Below, in pieces: positions 8,470-43,662 of a stretch of DNA of 47,723 nucleotides. This DNA is from a virus. Its lineage: Duplodnaviria; Caudoviricetes. The notes under the pieces were generated by a model that did not search any database, was not told where the DNA came from, and was given only the letters and a program-made list of their open reading frames with translations. The first letter of the stretch is position 1. The number at the start of each line of letters is the position of its first letter. Where the stretch lies: the IMG/VR virus record IMGVR_UViG_3300036798_000156, positions 1 through 47,723 of that record; one strand, given 5' to 3'. The translations under genes and the position numbers were made by a program.

Positions 8470-9219
8470 TTAAAATAAATCTCTCTGAGATTCAGAAGGA
8501 CGTATCAGTTTATCTGATTCGTCCTTTTTTCGTATGGTCAAACCCCACCTGTTCTTAGGTGAAGGCGCCTGATAGTCCAATTTTCCGTGGCCAGGACGCC
8601 CTGTCGCGCCCCAAGACACAAACTCGGTCTTTCTCTCCAGAGTCCACCCAGAAGCTTTGTAGATCGTTCCCTTGTGAACGGCAGTGTCCTGATAGGAAAT
8701 CAGTTTGATAACGTCAGGACGAGCTTTCCTGATCTCTTTTACCATGATTGACAGGAACCTTGAGGCCGTGTTCTTCGGAGCGTCAGGGGCGATTGCCATC
8801 CTTCGAAGCTCCAGACATCTGAACCCATCCGTAATCCTGTTGCCAGCAATTGGACACGACCAAAGAGCCACGGCATAAACTACATTCTTATGGACGACAG
8901 CATAACATGGATTACAAGCTGCCCCTCCCCAGGTAATTTCAGGCACTCTTGAGTGCCACTTTTTATTTAGTCGTCCGGCAAGTTTGTTATCACACTGAAC
9001 CACTCGGAAATCTTTGGCGCTTTCAGGCGGATCGAAAGATGCTGCCTCCAGTGGATGTAAAATTCTTTCCCCGCTGAGAGAGTCCAATTTTTCAGCCCTA
9101 TTCGGGTTTCGGTGTCTGGATTCCTTAGTTGTGCCCTCTCTCACTTCGCCGCGCGTAACAAGCAACGGCTCCGCCAACACAGGCGCGGGGAAAATTAAAT
9201 CTTGAATTTCTTTTGCCAT
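8470..9219 (-). CDS. mom: Mu Mom-like GNAT-fold DNA (adenine) modification enzyme
   Basis: LELRRMA...PKNTASRFLS...LISYQD..HKGTIYKASGW, the hallmark motif series of Mom/XF1762-type proteins. Confidence 0.8.
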   Translation of the reverse strand: MAKEIQDLIFPAPVLAEPLLVTRGEVREGTTKESRHRNPNRAEKLDSLSGERILHPLEAASFDPPESAKDFRVVQCDNKLAGRLNKKWHSRVPEITWGGAACNPCYAVVHKNVVYAVALWSCPIAGNRITDGFRCLELRRMAIAPDAPKNTASRFLSIMVKEIRKARPDVIKLISYQDTAVHKGTIYKASGWTLERKTEFVSWGATGRPGHGKLDYQAPSPKNRWGLTIRKKDESDKLIRPSESQRDLF

Positions 9220-9395
9220 TCTTCTACGAACCAGGCCGCCATCTGAAATTTGGCCTCCAGGTTTTCGTCCATGTTATCGTTGTTTTCAAGAAATTTTTTA
9301 AGTGACGGAACGTCAATGACCTCCGCTAGATCGATTAGCATACAAATATCTTCCCCTGCCCTGCCGGCTTTGGGTGTTAGGAATTGATCAGCCAT
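9195..9395 (-). CDS. hypothetical protein
   Basis: overlaps neighbours in the minus-strand operon. Confidence 0.55.
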   Translation of the reverse strand: MADQFLTPKAGRAGEDICMLIDLAEVIDVPSLKKFLENNDNMDENLEAKFQMAAWFVEEWQKKFKI

Positions 9396-9784
9396 CGCTT
9401 TGGTATGTCTTCCGGTTTAGTTTTCCACCAATCCTTATCGCAGAAACCTTTTGGCGTTTCACGAACATCAGGAGCAGGCGGCACGATAAATTTTCCGTAT
9501 GCATTCTGTCCAAGTCTGATTTCTGAAGGCCTCTTTTTTCGATACCAGTTTCGTTTTCTTCGAGTTGGTAGGGACTTCTTCACCCTGTCAGCAAGCCTTA
9601 CACGCTTGATCTCTGGATGCATCGCCCTCCATCTGTTTCTGGCCTTCTCCTGTATCTTGGCCTTGTGGCGCAGGTAAAATTGCCTTCGTTCTTCCCTACC
9701 TTTAGGAGTTGCGTTGTAAGCGTTGGCATAACACGACTTACAAACCCCATTCTTTTGCAACTGCCTATTGTGAGAACAATTCAT
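9377..9784 (-). CDS. basic Cys-containing protein (zinc finger plus helix)
   Basis: C-x-H...GVCKSCY; start moved to ATG 9784, just after the tRNA-like element. Confidence 0.55.
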   Translation of the reverse strand: MNCSHNRQLQKNGVCKSCYANAYNATPKGREERRQFYLRHKAKIQEKARNRWRAMHPEIKRVRLADRVKKSLPTRRKRNWYRKKRPSEIRLGQNAYGKFIVPPAPDVRETPKGFCDKDWWKTKPEDIPKRWLINS

Positions 9785-10151
9785 TGGAAACAGAGAGCGC
9801 CTGGGTTGGTCGTGAGCCACCATCTTCTCCCTGGAGGGGAGACAATCTACATTGATCTACAGGCGCTTTCTGTCTCCTATTTGAAATTTGTTGCTTGGGC
9901 GAGGCCCATCTGCAATTGGATGGCATGTAATGTCCGCTGGGATCAATTCTGTCCAATGTCATACCGTGAGGCCTTTCACCCATGTCGTTCAGAAAATTCG
10001 AAAAATCAAACCAACGGGCACAAACTTGTATGCCCCTGCCCCCATAATTGCAGAAATTAATATGATTCCTGCCATAACATCTGCGTTTCATTCTCTTCCA
10101 TGAATAGTAGGTTCTTGAAATAATACCTCTTCTTGCGTGTCCGTGTTTCAT
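9765..10151 (-). CDS. HNH homing endonuclease
   Basis: Y..W..M..RC...YGGRGI.VC.RW..F..F..DMG.RP....LDRID..G.Y.P.NCRWA. Confidence 0.85.
   Translation of the reverse strand: MKHGHARRGIISRTYYSWKRMKRRCYGRNHINFCNYGGRGIQVCARWFDFSNFLNDMGERPHGMTLDRIDPSGHYMPSNCRWASPKQQISNRRQKAPVDQCRLSPLQGEDGGSRPTQALSVSNELFSQ
9796..9866 (-). tRNA. atypical tRNA-Gly(UCC) embedded in the 3' end of the HNH ORF
   Basis: GCGCCTG TA GATC AATGTA GATT G TCTCC CCTCCAG GGAGA AGAT GGTGG CTCACGA CCAACC CAGGCGC T: full cloverleaf, anticodon TCC (9835-9833), G1-C72/C2-G71/G3-C70, U73. Confidence 0.75.
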
Positions 10152-11821
10152 ACTTGTTCTGTAATTATCATTCTAGCACCATCGAAGTTAAATGCAACCA
10201 AATGTCCACTTGATCCGCTGGTATTTTTTAGAACCTCAATATCGATTATAGCAGGATCGGGGCGTGACATTCCAAGCACCAGGTTTGATGAATTCTCCAG
10301 TGAGCCGGAATCTTTCGCGTCAAATAGAGTTGGACGAAACGTTGCCATCTTCTTACCCTTCTCATGATCAGGCCTGGGCACTTGGCTGGCCATAATAAGA
10401 ATTGTATTTGTCCTCTTGGCTATGATCTTCAACTGCTCGGCGTTGTCCGACAGGGCCTCGTATCGTTTCCGCCCACCCTTATGCATTAAGCCAACGTAAT
10501 CAACAAAAACCAGAGACGGCCTTTCCCCGAAAAGTAATTCACTCCTGTCAATGTAGTTTTCGATTTGATCAGGGGTGATTCCGCTCTCCGGACACACCAG
10601 GATATTTTTCAGGTCGTGAAAGGTTTGGGCATACTTTTCGGTGCCCTCCTTGTATTCACCCTCCACATCTCTGGCGTAACACTTCAACTGCATCTGGGCA
10701 AACCTCTCATACATTTTTCCGAGAGGCAACTCAAGCTCAAAGAAAACCGTTTTCAAGTCCGTGGCCTTTGCTATGGTCTGAAGGAAGGCGGTCTTTCCAA
10801 TTCCTGTTGTGGCCAATACAAGAATTAGCTCACCTGGCACACACTTCTCAACGAAACCTCCAAGTATCGGCATGAAGTCGCTAAATCGTAACACCTGCTT
10901 GGCTCTCTTTTGAATCTCATGACGATATACTTCCTCCATCTGCTCGATGCTATAAAGGGGAGCAGGCTTGAGAGTGTGGGGCGTGGATTCAATAGCCTTG
11001 TTAAGGTGAAATGACGCATTGGCAATGTCCGAGCCTGGATGATTAATAAAGTCAAACAGGTCTTTATGAGGGGCAAGGTTGAGTCTCTTGATAGAGCCTG
11101 CCTTATCCCTGATAGACGCATAAACATCATCACCATATTTCTTTCCGGCTGGGTCGTTATGCTCAATAATGATAACGTCTTTGCCCTTAAAGAAGTCGCC
11201 ATAAGCCGAGAGCCATCCGCTTGACCCGCCTGAGCAACACGTAGCTACAAGTCCCATTGACTCTGCCGCCATAACATCTTTTTCTCCTTCGCAGATGATA
11301 ACAGACTTGGCTTCTACGAGCCTAGGCAAGCGAAAGGGAACCCTGGTTACGTTCTCCAGATTCCAAACAAGTCCTTCCTCTCTGTGATGACGTTGCCGGA
11401 ACGATTTTGGTTCATATCGGCAAACCTCATAGAGGAGGTTGCCGTTTTCATCCGTGTAAGGATAAATAGCTGTTGGTTCGCTTAGGTCAAGTTTCTTCGG
11501 TTCGGGATGGTTACTCATATGTTCTCTTGTGAAATCCTTGATACCATATCCGCCTTCGAATCCGAAGCTTTTCATAACGTCAAGTGAAGATTGTCCAGTC
11601 TCAATCATTTCCCAATCTATAATCGACCCACCCTGATGGCAGTCGTTACAGAACCAGATGTTTCGATCCGGGTCGATGCTCACGCAGAAGTGGCCTTTTT
11701 TATGCTCCACTACTGGGCACATATTTGTGGCGAATTGTTTTCCTGATCGCCTCAGGGTCGCGCCCTTGTTTTCTAAATAGGATTGCAGGGGGTTATTTCG
11801 GATTATTTCGTCTCTGGTCAT
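10148..11821 (-). CDS. primase-helicase (CHC2 zinc finger, TOPRIM, DnaB-like helicase)
   Basis: CP..H...WFCNDC; ICEGEKD and HND; Walker A ATTGIGKT, FELE, VDYVGL, ASQ. Confidence 0.9.
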   Translation of the reverse strand: MTRDEIIRNNPLQSYLENKGATLRRSGKQFATNMCPVVEHKKGHFCVSIDPDRNIWFCNDCHQGGSIIDWEMIETGQSSLDVMKSFGFEGGYGIKDFTREHMSNHPEPKKLDLSEPTAIYPYTDENGNLLYEVCRYEPKSFRQRHHREEGLVWNLENVTRVPFRLPRLVEAKSVIICEGEKDVMAAESMGLVATCCSGGSSGWLSAYGDFFKGKDVIIIEHNDPAGKKYGDDVYASIRDKAGSIKRLNLAPHKDLFDFINHPGSDIANASFHLNKAIESTPHTLKPAPLYSIEQMEEVYRHEIQKRAKQVLRFSDFMPILGGFVEKCVPGELILVLATTGIGKTAFLQTIAKATDLKTVFFELELPLGKMYERFAQMQLKCYARDVEGEYKEGTEKYAQTFHDLKNILVCPESGITPDQIENYIDRSELLFGERPSLVFVDYVGLMHKGGRKRYEALSDNAEQLKIIAKRTNTILIMASQVPRPDHEKGKKMATFRPTLFDAKDSGSLENSSNLVLGMSRPDPAIIDIEVLKNTSGSSGHLVAFNFDGARMIITEQV

Positions 11822-11975
11822 GTAGTTTCTCTTCGATCTTCTGTAATGTTTCTCTGTAAAGGTCGTCGCCCAGAAGTTGGCGATTGAACCCAAAAATGTA
11901 TGTCCGTTGATCGTGGTCTAGGAAGTGGTGAATCTCTTCCCGGCCGCGGTTTGAAATCCAAATCTCCACCATCAT
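11793..11975 (-). CDS. hypothetical protein
   Basis: ATG 11975 overlaps the initiator stop (ATGA). Confidence 0.5.
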   Translation of the reverse strand: MMVEIWISNRGREEIHHFLDHDQRTYIFGFNRQLLGDDLYRETLQKIEEKLHDQRRNNPK

Positions 11976-12598
11976 ATATTGAGCTTGAAGCCACCCTCGT
12001 CCGGGTTCCATTCTTCCTCCGATAATGTGTAACAACTTTGATTCATCCAGCTAGATATTAATTTGATAAAACGCGGAGCAATTTCACGGGTGCACTTGGT
12101 AAAGGCCTTCACCTTCGATAGCATTTCTTCGGCAGTAAGTCCACTTTTTTTAATGGCTTTTTCTATCACATTGTAGGCTACATCTTGTGATTCTCTCCTG
12201 CCTTTTGGATAGGCCTGCCAGATTTCATAAAGTAAAGGGGAGGGGGTTACCGGTTCTTTGGTGGTTCTGGGAGACCTGGTGGTTAGTGTCTCAATTTGAG
12301 ACATGGTGCCATGTCCCTTTTTGAGACATGGTATGTCATTTAAAGGCAGGTGGTAAATGTTGGAAATCTTGCCTTTGTATTCCCTATTTTCGATTTTTAA
12401 AAATCCAAGGCGTTCCAGGGTTTGTATGTGGCGATTGACTGTTTGCCTTTGCAGATTGGTATGTTTTGCTATTGTTGACTGTGACGGCCAGCATTCCCCT
12501 TCGTCATTTGCATTGTCGGCGATTTTTACTAAAACAAATTTAGCGTTGGATGGTGAAACATCCTGCCGAAACGCCCAATCAATTGCCCTTATGCTCAT
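11972..12598 (-). CDS. phage replication initiator with an N-terminal winged HTH
   Basis: MS..A..WA...K.VL..IAD.AN..G.CWPS..TIA......TV...I..L...G; C-terminal W..YPK...W.N domain. Confidence 0.8.
   Translation of the reverse strand: MSIRAIDWAFRQDVSPSNAKFVLVKIADNANDEGECWPSQSTIAKHTNLQRQTVNRHIQTLERLGFLKIENREYKGKISNIYHLPLNDIPCLKKGHGTMSQIETLTTRSPRTTKEPVTPSPLLYEIWQAYPKGRRESQDVAYNVIEKAIKKSGLTAEEMLSKVKAFTKCTREIAPRFIKLISSWMNQSCYTLSEEEWNPDEGGFKLNI
12287..12332. repeat. iteron-like repeats, candidate origin inside the initiator gene
   Basis: TTTGAGACATGGT at 12295 and 12320; palindrome TGTCTCAA-T-TTGAGACA 12287-12303. Confidence 0.45.
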
Positions 12599-12868: not shown

Positions 12869-12941
12869 AGCAGGGTGGAGCAGTGGTAGCTCGCCTGGCT
12901 CATAACCAGGAGGCCGCGGGTTCGATTCGCCGCCCCTGCCA
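12869..12941 (+). tRNA. tRNA-Met(CAT), initiator-like
   Basis: cloverleaf; anticodon 12901-12903; unpaired A1/C72, A11-U24; one extra G in the T-stem; no encoded CCA. Confidence 0.85.
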
Positions 12942-12994
12942 CTTTTATGAAACTCAACAATCCACCGCGACCATCGCAACTTTCTGGGTTCTCC

Positions 12995-13067
12995 CGGGCA
13001 GTAGCGCAGTGGTCAGCGTGTGCGCCTTGGAAGCGCGAGGTCGTGGGTTCGAATCCCGCCTGCCCGA
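12995..13067 (+). tRNA. tRNA-Pro(TGG)
   Basis: CGGGCAG/CTGCCCG acceptor, loop CTTGGAA, GGTTCGAATCC, A73. Confidence 0.9.
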
Positions 13068-32465: not shown

Positions 32466-34636
32466 AACGATTTCTAACTCTCATATCTCTGTTACTGGCC
32501 TCTACGGCGCTGGCAATTGATACTCCCATTACTAATGGAGTTCTTCAAACTAATCTGAACGCTAATGGTTTTCAGGTTACTAACCTTAATGTAACCAACC
32601 TTCCGCTTCAGCCTCTAAATAATAACCTGACCGTTATTTCGAATGGAACAGGAGTCTCAACTGCGGCAGTTAATTTCCTGGCCCAACCAGACGTTCCATC
32701 GATGGTCGCGTTTTTGGGACTGACCAATACCGGAACATTTGTCCAAAACACGCCTCTAATAGCAAGCAAATTCTTTACGGCATTCAATAGTGGAACAGGA
32801 GCCTTCACGCAATCCTTCGTTAACTGGTCGGACATACAAGGCGCTCCAACGTTAGCTAACAACACTCCGCCAGTAAGTAATCAGGTCATCACTGGATATA
32901 ATTCCTCCACTGGCGTATTCACGCAAGCCCAGCAATCATTTTCCAACCTTTCGGGATCGGCTACGGCCGGACAACTTCCTGCTCTAAATAATATCACTAT
33001 ACCAAATGGTGATTTGAGTTTGAACAACCATAAGATCACAGGTCTTGCAACTCCAGTTAATGCTGCCGATGGTGCTAGAAAAGATTACGTGGATACATCA
33101 GTTTCGGCAGGTATTCCTCCCCCTCACCAAGCAGTCGCCGCTGCCACGACAGCAAACATTACCCTTTCCGGAGAGCAAACAATCGATGGAGTTACTACCT
33201 CTGCAAGCCGAGTCCTGGTCAAGAATGAAACCACCGCCTCTACAAACGGACTTTATGTTTCTGCCGCAGGAGCATGGACAAGGGCAACCGATTCCACTAC
33301 AAGTGGACAATTTCCTGGCGGGATTTTTGTATCAGCGGGAACAGTAAATGCCAATACTGGATGGGCGATTTCCAATGCCCAGCCCATTAATGTTGGAGTT
33401 GATAGCTTAACTTACGTTCAGATTTCCTCTGTCCCGCCTTCTCACAATCCGGTTACTTTCAGTGGACAAAATTATCTAACGCTAGACCAGCCTAACCAAA
33501 TTCTTACCGCCAATGCGGTAGACCTTTCAGGAACAAATGCCACAGGTATTTTAGCTGCTGCAAGATTTCCTGCGTTGTCAGGACAGGTCACGACCGTGGC
33601 AGGAAGCTTAACCTCCTCAATAGCTGCCAACACAGTTTCGAACGCCAACCTGGCCCAGGTGCCTGGCAATTCAATTAAGGGCAATAAAACAAGTAGCACC
33701 GCCAATGCCACAGACCTGACTGTCACAGATACCAGAACACTTCTATCAATCAGCAACGTAGAAAACACCGCCCTATCTACATGGCCCGGTAGCGCCAACA
33801 TAACAACACTTGGATCAGTTACAACCGGCACCTGGAATGGCACTACCGTTTCAATTGCCAAGGGAGGAACGGGTGGCACGACTGCTGGAACAGCATTAGG
33901 AAACCTTCTGCCTGCTGGATCGGCTGGACAATCTTTGGTTTATCTTACTTCTAGCACACAGGCCTTCAAATCTACTTATCGCAAGGTCAATGTTGTGGTT
34001 CTTACTACTACAGGAACATATACCCCCTCAACTGGCACGACTGAAATATTTGTTCAAGCTGTAGGCGGAGGCGGAGGTAGTGCCGGCGCTAAGGCAGCTT
34101 CTGTTCAGACATCAGTTGGTTCTGGAGGTGGCGGAGCGGGTTATGCGGCCAAATGGATAACAGGAGTTTCTGGAACATATGCTTACGTAATCGGAGCCGG
34201 GGGACTAGCCGGAATTGCCAATAATGGCCCCGGCGGAAATGGAGGTAATACTACATTTACTGCTGTATTAAGCGCAGGAGGCGGAGGTGGCGGAACCAAT
34301 AATGGATCGGGTACCAATTTAGCACAAAATGGTTTCGGAGGCACGGCCGGCATAGGAATCACAGGAGATATTAAAATAGGAGGAAGTGATGGCACGCCTT
34401 CTCTTAGATTGTCATCCTCTCAAGGGGTGACAGGTAATGGAGGAAGTTCTCAACTCGGAGGAGGTGGTGTTACTACTACGGCAGGTGGAAGTACCGATTC
34501 TAATGGTAATAATGGATATAATTATGGCGGAGGGGCCGGAGGGGCAGCTTCGTTTGACGCGACAGGACAGGTTGGAGGGACGGGTGCGCCAGGTGTTATT
34601 ATTATCACCGAATATATTGCCACCACCGCACCATAA
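32462..34636 (+). CDS. tail fibre with a glycine-rich C-terminal domain and an N-terminal signal peptide
   Basis: KITGLA.P....D.A.K.YVD; LSG.QTIDGV....RVLVKN; GTYTP..G......AVGGGG...G.PG.III.EY; GTG start overlaps the previous TGA. Confidence 0.8.
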   Translation: MKRFLTLISLLLASTALAIDTPITNGVLQTNLNANGFQVTNLNVTNLPLQPLNNNLTVISNGTGVSTAAVNFLAQPDVPSMVAFLGLTNTGTFVQNTPLIASKFFTAFNSGTGAFTQSFVNWSDIQGAPTLANNTPPVSNQVITGYNSSTGVFTQAQQSFSNLSGSATAGQLPALNNITIPNGDLSLNNHKITGLATPVNAADGARKDYVDTSVSAGIPPPHQAVAAATTANITLSGEQTIDGVTTSASRVLVKNETTASTNGLYVSAAGAWTRATDSTTSGQFPGGIFVSAGTVNANTGWAISNAQPINVGVDSLTYVQISSVPPSHNPVTFSGQNYLTLDQPNQILTANAVDLSGTNATGILAAARFPALSGQVTTVAGSLTSSIAANTVSNANLAQVPGNSIKGNKTSSTANATDLTVTDTRTLLSISNVENTALSTWPGSANITTLGSVTTGTWNGTTVSIAKGGTGGTTAGTALGNLLPAGSAGQSLVYLTSSTQAFKSTYRKVNVVVLTTTGTYTPSTGTTEIFVQAVGGGGGSAGAKAASVQTSVGSGGGGAGYAAKWITGVSGTYAYVIGAGGLAGIANNGPGGNGGNTTFTAVLSAGGGGGGTNNGSGTNLAQNGFGGTAGIGITGDIKIGGSDGTPSLRLSSSQGVTGNGGSSQLGGGGVTTTAGGSTDSNGNNGYNYGGGAGGAASFDATGQVGGTGAPGVIIITEYIATTAP

Positions 34637-41238: not shown

Positions 41239-41849
41239 TGGAAGGAGGGTCTTCCTCGTCCGGCGGTTCAGCCGTCTCGCCGACAGTTTATCCAGTAAAT
41301 ACTTTGGCCACTGAACAGGCAGGCATAGCTGCCGATCAGTATGGATACAACCTGAGTGACGCAGACTTTGCCAGTCGGTTCCCAGGTTTAGTAGCCTCTC
41401 GCGGAACAGACATGGCTACGGCCGAGAAAGAGATGACCGGCCCCCTGGCTGCTCCAGTTGAAAATGCCTTTACATCCTCCGGACTTTCTAAGGCCTTTTC
41501 TGCTTTCGGAGGAGGGTCAGAAGACCCAAATGTAACGGGAACTGGCAGTATAGGTCGTAAAACTATTGGCGCTTCAGTGGCAAATGATACGATGTCCTAC
41601 CAGAACGCTGCCAGGGATTACTTCCAGAACCTAATCGAGCAGAACCCTCAACGTGCCTTTGGATTGTCTGGAGGTGACCTGCTTAATCTTTCTATTCTCA
41701 ATCAGGGAAATCTAGCGCAAGCGAATCAACAGGCAGCGGGCATTGCATCTCAGGTTGGGGCTGCCCAAGCTCAGGCAAGCCAATCGCAAACAAATTCACT
41801 TATCGGAGCAGGAAGCTCCATAGCAGGCGCTGCCATAGCCGCATTATGA
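41238..41849 (+). CDS. internal virion (DNA ejection) protein A
   Basis: MEGGSSSSGG start, Ala/Gln-rich, hydrophobic GAGSSIAGAAIAAL end. Confidence 0.65.
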   Translation: MEGGSSSSGGSAVSPTVYPVNTLATEQAGIAADQYGYNLSDADFASRFPGLVASRGTDMATAEKEMTGPLAAPVENAFTSSGLSKAFSAFGGGSEDPNVTGTGSIGRKTIGASVANDTMSYQNAARDYFQNLIEQNPQRAFGLSGGDLLNLSILNQGNLAQANQQAAGIASQVGAAQAQASQSQTNSLIGAGSSIAGAAIAAL

Positions 41850-42634
41850 TTAGATACCTATCGTCTATGACCCAGATCAATAAGTGGCTAGAAAGGTTCA
41901 GAAACCCAGTCGTAATGATGTCATTCGGAAAAGATTCCATGGCGCTGGGATTCATGATCTTCAAAATGCTAAAGTTGAAACTTCCTGTTATTTATTACCG
42001 CGACCCATTCGATCCCATTAAGAATGAATGGCCGGATAAAATCATACACGAATGGGGACTTGAGGTTTACGATTACCCGCCATATCAATGCAGGGTAAAA
42101 GTGAAGGGAGAATTTATTGAACTATGTCCATCCTACCAAATTGGGGAACTTCCAAATGGATGCATAGACGTTCCCAAGGCAATTCTTGAGCCTGATTACA
42201 AAGGCGACTGGCATTGTGGCCTAAAGATTCTAGAACGCCCAAAAGGAAGTTTTAATTTTCCGTGGGACCTGATTCTTCATGGCCATAAGTCGGCAGACGT
42301 AGATCGATTCTATGGCCCTGTCAAGCTGAAGACTGAACTGGTGGAGAAGGACGGAATTCCAGCCGTGGCGTTCCCCCTTAAGGACTGGACTCATGATGAC
42401 ATATGGGATTTCATTGAAGACTTCGACATTCCATTCCAGCAGGATCGCTATTTAAACCGCGTTGAATCCGCAGATAAAATAACAAACAACGATTATTTGG
42501 TTGCCTGCACAAACTGTGTCGATCCCCGCAAGGCAGGACAAGACGTTTACTGTCCTCTCGTTGGTCATGGCATTAAAAACATTTCCGAGCAAGTCCTTCA
42601 GGCGCCGGCACTGTTACCTGATTACATCATATGA
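41846..42634 (+). CDS. PAPS reductase/CysD-family adenine nucleotide alpha-hydrolase
   Basis: PP-loop SFGKDS; FPLKDWTHDDIW; CTNC...CP. Confidence 0.8.
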   Translation: MIRYLSSMTQINKWLERFRNPVVMMSFGKDSMALGFMIFKMLKLKLPVIYYRDPFDPIKNEWPDKIIHEWGLEVYDYPPYQCRVKVKGEFIELCPSYQIGELPNGCIDVPKAILEPDYKGDWHCGLKILERPKGSFNFPWDLILHGHKSADVDRFYGPVKLKTELVEKDGIPAVAFPLKDWTHDDIWDFIEDFDIPFQQDRYLNRVESADKITNNDYLVACTNCVDPRKAGQDVYCPLVGHGIKNISEQVLQAPALLPDYII

Positions 42635-43662
42635 CACTTCAAGAAGAATATAAAGCAGTATCAATACGGTGCCTGGGAGATATAGATTTCTTCATAGTTG
42701 GACTGCCGAGATGCCGGATGGCATGGATTGCAAATTATCTGACGTATGGAGACACGGAATGCCACTTCGATGGATTCGTGCCGGGATTATACGGAGAAGG
42801 CCCAGACGTGATAGAAATGTATTATAACCCCGAAAAGGTAGTTGGAGTTGCAGATGGGGCCGCCCTAATGTTCCAAGATCGACTGATAGAGAAATATCCA
42901 CATGCCAAATGGGTGGTAATAACTAGACCTCATCCAACTGTCATTGCGTCAGTTAAGAAGCTTGGCATCCCCATTGATGACCGACTCACGACCCTCCACT
43001 ACAAGATGGGCGAACTTAGAGCCAAGGTTCAACCACTTGTGGTTCCGTTCGATTCTCTGGACAAGTCCATTAAAGACATCGCAACATTCGTTAACCCGTC
43101 ATGGAAATGCCCCCAATGGAGACACGACATGCTGGTAGGTCTTAATGTCCAAACCAGAATTACCCAAGATGACCTCGTAAAGATTCCCTTAATTAATCCA
43201 CTGAGTAAGGCCGCCGAACCTGTAACGCCAACCAAGACTCAGGATGATTTCTTCAAACTTATTCAAGAAATTTGCGGAGACAATAAACTCGCTTATAGGT
43301 GGTTATGGCAGGCGATAGAAGTCGCCTCCATTTTGGATCATGTAATGGATAGCGAGCTAATTGATTTTCAGCATTTCGATACAGTAATGAAAGGAGTCCT
43401 GCTGGAGTGGGGCATCAATGAATTTTACAAGAAGAATGCAATTTACCTTTCGCCTGTCATGAGTCAGGCAATTGCCTCCTGGCAACATTCCACCGGCTCA
43501 TTTAAAAGGGCGGGTCATTACAACATTTACACAAGCGTTCCAACTGCGGTTGCCTTTTTAATGGGCGGGCAGGAATACGTGGACAAGTTCGCGCCACGCC
43601 TACATGCATTGGTGGAACAACTTGAAATTGAGGACACTAAACGAGATGGAGAAACATTATGA
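42631..43662 (+). CDS. sulfotransferase-like P-loop domain fused to an isoprenoid-synthase-like helical domain
   Basis: FFIVGLPR.R.AW.AN.L, P.AK.VV..R; C-terminal LDHVMD (DDxxD-like) followed by N.FY. Confidence 0.55.
   Translation: MTLQEEYKAVSIRCLGDIDFFIVGLPRCRMAWIANYLTYGDTECHFDGFVPGLYGEGPDVIEMYYNPEKVVGVADGAALMFQDRLIEKYPHAKWVVITRPHPTVIASVKKLGIPIDDRLTTLHYKMGELRAKVQPLVVPFDSLDKSIKDIATFVNPSWKCPQWRHDMLVGLNVQTRITQDDLVKIPLINPLSKAAEPVTPTKTQDDFFKLIQEICGDNKLAYRWLWQAIEVASILDHVMDSELIDFQHFDTVMKGVLLEWGINEFYKKNAIYLSPVMSQAIASWQHSTGSFKRAGHYNIYTSVPTAVAFLMGGQEYVDKFAPRLHALVEQLEIEDTKRDGETL

Follow-up and report, generated by a model that had tools for sequence, protein, structure and literature searches.

A bulged tRNA-Gly-like RNA linked to phage mom genes, probably a glycine donor for the Mom enzyme

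The Mom enzyme of phage Mu takes glycine from Gly-tRNA-Gly and refuses Gly-tRNA-Ala, and the accessible parts of the 2026 paper that reports this assume scavenging of host tRNA and do not mention a phage-coded donor tRNA (PMC13219725). Non-proteogenic tRNA-Gly species are described in Staphylococcus aureus, where NP1-NP3, which have weak T-stem pairs, are the donors for FmhB, FemA and FemB. How tightly EF-Tu binds a tRNA depends on the first three pairs of the T-stem; donors bound by EF-Tu are withheld from FmhB, for which S. aureus maintains isoacceptors that EF-Tu binds weakly (PMC7826273, available in part). A report on the ssrA islands of Dehalococcoides, available as excerpts, noted a conserved 76-bp tRNA-Gly-like "pseudo-tRNA" in a mom homologue, inside its first 150 bp, at a locus found in 16 modules and one fosmid (PMC3146451, 2011). 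Also known are tRNAs of irregular form, which have 8/4 or 9/3 acceptor branches and a bulge at 51a, some of them charged yet unused in translation (PMC5389517, likewise in part). This paper concerns a tRNA-Gly(UCC)-like RNA gene and a mom-like gene in the IMG/VR virus record IMGVR_UViG_3300036798_000156 (Caudoviricetes; 47.7 kb, completeness about 69%), whose 47,723 nucleotides (nt) are called the window here. Of the sequencing runs that hold this DNA the best is a soil metagenome, none of those listed is an RNA run, and a second DNA run covers just 24 nt of the RNA gene. A preliminary description of this DNA had proposed that the RNA is a dedicated glycyl carrier for DNA modification, and had mentioned recent work in which Mom uses Gly-tRNA-Gly as donor, which is indeed in print for the Mu enzyme.

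The element runs on the minus strand from G1 at 9866 to U73 at 9796. It lies on the same strand as mom and 577 nt upstream of the mom ATG at 9219, close to the 580 nt first estimated, and the complete cloverleaf proposed for it is borne out by all 21 stem pairs. The acceptor stem pairs 7/7, including G1-C72, C2-G71 and G3-C70, the last of which we take to be a GlyRS determinant. The D-stem pairs 4/4 and closes a D-loop of 6 nt, AATGTA, without GG. The anticodon stem (5/5) holds the loop CC-UCC-AG with C at position 33 and is followed by a variable loop of 4 nt, and the T-stem (5/5, with G49-C65, G50-C64 and U51-A63) contains an extra A and closes the T-loop CTCACGA. The determinants reported for GlyRS in the available text of PMC10464925, which are G1-C72, C2-G71, C35, C36 and U73, are all present in the window copy, so the identity elements are kept as had been claimed. 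All four of the features G18G19, U33, a TTCRANY loop and an unbroken 5-bp T-stem are altered, again as first described, and the element is therefore not a canonical translational tRNA-Gly(UCC).

The minimum-energy fold of the element is the cloverleaf (z -2.35, with 2 of 200 shuffles equally good), and a relaxed cloverleaf scan of both strands of the window, allowing at most one defect, returned just a tRNA-Pro and the element. Because bare cloverleaves also arise in shuffled windows (11 in 18, about 0.6 each, none of the 11 with an NCC glycine anticodon), the cloverleaf alone is weak evidence and the match to a family carries the weight. The mom-linked bulged family is defined here by a GCG/CGC acceptor top, an NCC anticodon, G49-C65, G52G53/C61C62, a bulged A after position 63, and a mom gene on the same strand within 3 kb. 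The window copy has all of these features, and with models built without the window sequence the element is the top match in the window (44.8 bits with one model, 56.8 bits with the other).

Default ARAGORN does not call the element, which is picked up only at -ps80 as one among 43 calls, and Rfam (RF00005) gives no match to it at E<=5 over the whole window or at E<=10 over a 261-nt region. The expectation that tRNA scanners would miss it thus holds for the window copy but only in part for its family. Default ARAGORN made 19 calls on the 80 viral mom loci described below (16 of them in the first 60 loci), of which 9 read Gly(tcc) and 10 had a "tc" loop that could not be read. These calls, each on the same strand as mom, cover 19 of the 52 copies, and Rfam detects 4 of the 7 family copies tested.

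The link between this RNA and mom was examined from both sides. The protein-first set comprised the best 80 of 543 viral stretches encoding relatives of the window Mom protein, and RNA copies were found in it by a motif search and a model, R1. The bulged RNA was present at 52 of these 80 loci, as 45 distinct sequences, 44 of which had served to train R1. Every one of the 52 copies is nested within the 5' end of a mom frame, in most cases with 52 nt between the end of its CCA and the W of WHSR, and the consensus Mom protein "motif" PLFQ..GG..PTS.LQ is this RNA read in frame. Among mom loci from prokaryote genomes, which lay outside the model training, 17 of 36 matched. Plasmids gave no match to the element. 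Nine of 160 loci have two Mom-matching open reading frames (ORFs) within a few kb (L002, L008, L028, L030, L070, L071, L118, L130 and L142), several of them combining one Mu-type and one window-type enzyme; the copies of L028, L030 and L071 are nested in the second mom gene.

The RNA-first set was built from a DNA pattern for bulged tRNA-Gly(UCC), which matched at least 121 stretches, 80 of which had flanks and were analysed. A pattern for ordinary tRNA-Gly(UCC) gave 120 control stretches, and again 80 with flanks were analysed, with a mean flank equal to that of the bulged set. The Mom profile for this comparison was built without RNA-coded residues. A mom gene was found at most 3 kb away, always on the same strand, at 74/80 bulged loci and at 1/80 ordinary ones; many of the loci are kin, and since they share descent and 4 contigs are common to the protein-first and RNA-first sets, these locus counts are not counts of independent events. 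Because the Mom profile had been trained on the test loci, the comparison was redone by searching entire records with Pfam PF25680, taking the first 50 bulged and the first 50 control records (48 of the latter searched), and matches were found in 46/50 bulged records (44 above cut-off) against 3/48 controls (2 above cut-off). The co-occurrence with mom homologues which the preliminary description had anticipated is therefore seen by both routes.

The two main Mom clades both have the RNA, and the layouts differ between them. Among the 74 loci, 25 copies lie within the mom 5' end, 34 overlap Mu-type genes at their 3' end, 8 have the mom stop about 10 nt or less from G1, and 1 lies just upstream. 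One of the 74 mom matches is a weak, DruA-like one, and at L129:1300-2004 the GNAT nearest to the copy fits Pfam DruA better than Mom. The sole control tRNA-Gly(UCC) beside a mom gene (L286:3001-3075) has a G-A at the acceptor/T junction and an altered D-loop, and is possibly another variant of the system. Two BLAST matches, in Atu_ph07 and XM05, were rejected: both are unbulged tRNA-Gly, and neither record has a PF25680 match.

Covariation was evaluated on 51 of 111 distinct 73-nt copies that share a single geometry. Copies having a 7-nt D-loop, which make up the remaining 60, were left out, and this split used pairing, which tilts the result somewhat in favour of covariation. In the 51 copies, 98.8% of cells are paired and 15 of the 21 pairs vary on both sides, as would be expected of the covarying stems first predicted. 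Two-sided changes amount to 230 cells, which none of 500 shuffles reached, and slid controls gave at most 47.7%. An unbulged T-stem register fails in 51/51. G1-C72, C2-G71, G3-C70 and C35C36 are invariant across these copies, and two genome copies carry other glycine anticodons, ACC at L103:580-655 and CCC at L096:63-138; because such copies occur in the family, C35C36 appears to be the constraint. Between the window copy and its two nearest relatives there are six two-sided and one one-sided pair changes, and no pair is broken.

Other features were counted in 58 parsed protein-first copies (of 60 distinct), 76 RNA-first copies and 77 ordinary controls, where "D-loop GG" means any GG within the loop, and where the control T-loop and the RNA-first bulge were fixed by the search patterns. 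The bulge is an A in 58/58 parsed protein-first copies. GG in the D-loop is kept in 27/58 protein-first and 29/76 RNA-first copies against 73/77 controls, and a 7-nt anticodon loop in 20/58 and 47/76 against 74/77; the remaining 38 protein-first copies have anticodon loops of 6 or 8 nt. U precedes the anticodon in 55/58, 50/76 and 72/77, respectively, and the TTCRANY T-loop is found in 33/58 protein-first and 23/76 RNA-first copies. GG, TTCRANY and a 7-nt loop are all intact in 0/58 protein-first and 7/76 RNA-first copies against 70/77 controls, whose T-loop was pattern-fixed. CCA is encoded in 52/58 and 59/76 copies. A73 occurs in 9 of the 58 protein-first copies. Altogether there is selection on the stems and the GlyRS marks, and the decoding features erode.

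The nested copies also seem to be translated. An in-frame ATG lies at most 20 codons upstream in 33/40 nested copies, and such an in-frame ATG lies between CCA and WHSR in 4/40. The RNA-coded peptide is still kept in 7 of 13 tested mom genes without nested RNA (0/300 shuffles each), at the mom 5' ends of L006, L010, L029, L040, L073, L075 and L079, where no RNA was detectable. This suggests that the nested region is really translated and that the RNA has been lost repeatedly. A nested-tRNA fossil in the 5' end of the window mom was considered and rejected, as 156/300 shuffles score as well and no model matches there. Pairing across the 5' part of the mom coding sequence, as a long hairpin or over a long range (9060-9195, minus strand), was no better than shuffles (z 0.08). 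A reading-frame register common to the window and the nested copies was likewise discarded, as the other frames would tend to hold stops.

The enzyme encoded beside the element is mom-like, as first described. It matches PF25680 over residues 134-199 with 56.3 bits (cut-off 27.1) and phrog_1384 with E 4.5e-18, and a sequence profile search gave Mu Mom (8bv8) as its sole significant solved relative. The predicted model (pLDDT 82) has Mu Mom 8bv8 as its top Foldseek match (E 6.8e-11, TM 0.53/0.64). In the alignment, R111, S124, D149 and Y159 of Mu Mom correspond to R140, S153, D178 and Y187 of the window enzyme. In a tree of 170 Mom cores, the window enzyme groups with four proteins, P0001-P0004, which are 70-78% identical to it, and then with the nested-type L007, L017 and L001 (support 0.58 and 0.98). 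The DNA encoding relatives P0001-P0004 was not found in the viral contigs (best identity 49%) or metagenome contigs searched. The window enzyme is classed with a distant Mom clade, not with the Mu type that forms 6-NcmdA, and its chemistry would be Mom-like.

Cultured phages also carry the RNA. Psychrobacter phage vB_PmaS_Y8A has two mom genes and, directly after one of them, two unannotated tandem copies (L433:2390-2530; OQ059336.1 7786-7926) that have lost the D-stem and kept the acceptor, UCC, the bulged T-stem and CCA. The copy in Verrucomicrobia phage P8625 (L429:1995-2070) has a C-C mismatch at 50-64 and stands beside a ParB-N6/N4 methyltransferase fusion gene; it is a candidate orphan, or a candidate partner of another enzyme.

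Because many other phages have this odd RNA within or next to mom, the element is likely Mom's own glycine carrier. The reading we favour, and hold to be probable on the strength of the sequence comparisons, is that it serves as a dedicated glycyl donor RNA for the neighbouring Mom, diverted from EF-Tu. The RNA would be transcribed with the initiator-primase-HNH-mom run, excised by host tRNA-processing enzymes and given its CCA. Host GlyRS would then charge it, as the intact G1-C72, C2-G71, C35, C36 and U73 suggest. Binding by EF-Tu may be weakened by the bulged A, which lies among the first three pairs of the T-stem, and the changes in the D-, T- and anticodon loops may bar the RNA from the ribosome, so that the charged RNA would remain free. 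Mom would transfer the glycine to adenine N6 in new phage DNA, a step known for Mu Mom with host tRNA, and the modified DNA would resist restriction. The RNA would boost this reaction and would not be needed across the whole enzyme family. It is an accessory to Mom, because 28 of the 80 viral mom contigs and Mu itself lack it and Mu uses host tRNA. Since the A is invariant within a near-invariant T-stem, the bulge looks recognised rather than damaged, which hints at binding by Mom, and the bulged T-stem may be a positive handle for the enzyme. We put forward more tentatively, as a possibility we would not yet bet on, that many Mom enzymes own a private aminoacyl-RNA cofactor, recognised through the bulged T-stem, preferred over host tRNA-Gly and often coded in-frame within mom.

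Several observations weigh against a donor role, besides the kinship of the loci. The 28 viral mom contigs just mentioned have no copy anywhere; most of them are partial, with a completeness of 90% or more in 1 of the 28. Three mom-bearing phages, Mu, JeffCo and Riggi, lack the RNA, P8625 has a copy yet no PF25680 match in its genome, and 6 of the 80 RNA-first loci have no mom (4 of these 6 have less than 340 nt upstream). All three E. coli tRNA-Gly isoacceptors support Mu Mom, and the HTH-like (helix-turn-helix-like) insertion at 175-209 and R151 are essential in that enzyme (PMC13219725, accessible parts). In the window Mom, which is 20% identical to Mu Mom, R151 aligns with A180, and no HTH-like insertion is predicted, with no helix between the strands at 193-198 and 222-228; substrate and product may therefore differ from those of Mu. 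The window copy itself lacks CCA and has C33 and C4-G69, a type of pair disfavoured by the GlyRS of L. plantarum, which also requires an L-shape (PMC10464925, available text). The free-standing layout, as in the window, is rare (6/74, at 185-1786 nt from mom). Model score had to be rejected as a family test, because ordinary tRNA-Gly(UCC) reach 61 bits on model R2; membership is defined by the bulge instead.

The strongest alternative, which we nevertheless judge unlikely, is that the RNA acts in cis, as a tRNA-Gly mimic in the mom message whose binding or cleavage by Mom, GlyRS or RNase P would set the timing or the extent of Mom synthesis. The mom frame is overlapped or abutted by 67/74 RNA-first and 52/52 protein-first copies, excision of the RNA would destroy the mom message because of the in-frame ATG upstream of the nested copies (33/40), and by annotation mom translation in Mu is controlled through Com. 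But the position varies between the 5' end, the 3' end and sites up to 1.8 kb off, the window copy is 577 nt and two ORFs away from mom, and Y8A carries tandem copies. The encoded CCA of most copies (52/58 and 59/76) would be relevant only for a released RNA.

It is slightly less probable that the family is functional and the window copy is its relic, stranded by two intervening ORFs and decaying in the HNH read-through tail. The missing CCA, C33, the 6-nt D-loop, the unusual T-loop and the rare layout all fit decay, and the nearest Mom relatives, L007 and L017, have nested copies (support 0.58). The nested 77-nt copy of L017 (L017:3986-4062) has the T-loop CTCACGA as in the window, and an extra base shifts its upstream ATG out of the mom frame, which fits as well. 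However, with seven pairs changed, none of the 21 is broken and the GlyRS marks are all in place, a missing CCA (17/76) and a non-U at position 33 (26/76) are common in the family, and the two ordinary tRNAs of this phage likewise lack a full CCA.

Phage tRNAs can replace host tRNAs cut by anticodon nucleases. A working translational tRNA, either for this purpose or for GGA codons, would account for the full cloverleaf and would sit well with the variation at anticodon-loop positions and with the two other tRNAs of the phage, and tRNAs with unusual acceptor/T-stem layouts can translate (PMC5389517, available in part). We regard it as improbable nonetheless: ordinary viral tRNA-Gly(UCC) is mom-linked in just 1/80, 38 of the 58 protein-first copies have anticodon loops of 6 or 8 nt, the Y8A copies have no D-stem, and two element-bearing genome bins also have an ordinary unbulged tRNA-Gly(UCC). 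A chance fold or integration-site remnant without a role of its own is highly improbable, for although shuffled windows yield bare cloverleaves at the rate given above and Rfam gives no score, the element is complete from G1 to U73, has the family bulge and is the top window match of models that had not seen it, no chance cloverleaf had a glycine anticodon, and both the mom co-occurrence and the stem covariation contradict it.

The features of the region are collected in the table. On the minus strand the gene order is initiator, primase-helicase, HNH, two unknown ORFs and mom, and from the overlapping starts and stops the RNA and mom would lie in the same operon. No terminator-like sites are listed on the minus strand between the RNA and mom, and a promoter scan found sites no more numerous than in shuffles. 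The RNA starts at the end of the HNH domain, because HNH codon 96 is G1C2G3. The preliminary description had placed the RNA hidden in the HNH tail; the overlap is real but incidental, as the usual layout is within or at the end of mom. The two unknown ORFs gave no family over cut-off in profile searches that included Pfam and PHROG.

Table. Features of the RNA-mom region in the window
Feature	Coordinates	Strand	Basis or remark
tRNA-Gly(UCC)-like RNA gene, mom-linked bulged-T-stem family	9796..9866	-	71 nt, 21/21 stem pairs, no encoded CCA
Anticodon UCC (C35, C36 = GlyRS determinants), with C in place of U33 before it	9833..9835	-	sequence, parse, PMC10464925 (available text)
Bulged A (either of two neighbouring A's), 3' strand of T-stem, flanked by pairs 51-63 and 50-64	9806..9807	-	family hallmark
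Mom-family GNAT enzyme, 249 amino acids	8470..9219	-	PF25680, phrog_1384, 8bv8
HNH endonuclease ORF; match at residues 7-96, remaining codons read through RNA gene	9765..10151	-	profile match
Unknown ORF between RNA and mom; listed start inside RNA, second in-frame ATG at 9784, 12 nt past U73	9377..9823	-	
Unknown 66-amino-acid ORF overlapping mom start	9195..9395	-	
Replication initiator	11972..12598	-	heads same-strand gene run
Primase-helicase	10148..11893	-	same gene run as initiator

Elsewhere in the window, two ordinary tRNAs, Met-CAT (12869-12942) and Pro-TGG (12995-13067), lie on the plus strand between the replication run and the terminase, neither with a full CCA. A PAPS-reductase-like ORF followed by a hydrolase-like ORF (41846-43662, plus strand; weak PHROG matches) stands among the late genes and could be a further modification module. 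A weak ARAGORN call of tRNA-Asp at -ps90 (32776-32865, minus strand), antisense within the tail-fibre gene, is probably chance.

Each half of the proposed system was known before, and the nested RNA was glimpsed in 2011, as the available excerpts of PMC3146451 document. The mom-wide RNA family, its bulge and its donor role appear to be undescribed in print; no paper proposing the donor role was found in the literature searched, a search whose reach excluded most subscription papers. Mom has EF-Tu as a competitor for charged glycine tRNA, and a conserved carrier RNA tied to mom would widen the role of non-proteogenic tRNAs from the cell wall of staphylococci to anti-restriction in phages. In many Mom proteins the conserved N-terminal "motif" is explained as an in-frame tRNA, the same bases coding for protein and structural RNA. 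The bulge, a single base, is a natural and testable candidate for either an EF-Tu antideterminant or a Mom determinant, and bears on how tRNA-using GNATs choose their donor. If the wider proposal of a private cofactor is true, one transcript would yield enzyme or cofactor, DNA hypermodification by an enzyme and its carrier RNA would be widespread, and the window would hold the freed, stand-alone form. Psychrobacter phage Y8A, with its two copies after mom, offers a cultured test case.

The element resembles the irregular tRNAs in its non-canonical acceptor/T branch, and some of those have a bulged A. In the available text of PMC5389517 they belong to the Sec, Cys, Ser or His types and are bulged on the 5' strand, whereas the element here is a mom-linked Gly RNA of 7/5 form, bulged on the 3' strand. 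With Mu Mom, the window enzyme shares the Pfam family, the fold and the counterparts of R111, S124, D149 and Y159, but it is only 20% identical and has neither the R151 counterpart nor a predicted HTH-like insertion, and Mu itself has no gene for such an RNA and relies on isoacceptors scavenged from the host. The Dehalococcoides element, compared by description and not by sequence, matches the 52 nested copies in size and layout; the accessible excerpts of that report (PMC3146451) give no function, bulge or phage-wide link, and the window copy is free-standing instead. With NP1-NP3, as far as the accessible account goes, the shared points are a glycyl-tRNA reserved for a GNAT-fold transferase, a T-stem altered in the EF-Tu region, and differences in the D and T arms. 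Those S. aureus RNAs are chromosomal, staphylococcal, directed to peptidoglycan and not nested in the enzyme gene, with the pairs A49-U65, U50-A64 and A51-U63, whereas the window RNA has G49-C65 and G50-C64 plus a bulge, and its proposed target is DNA. The window RNA is thus not a member of NP1-NP3, and by analogy its function would be like theirs.

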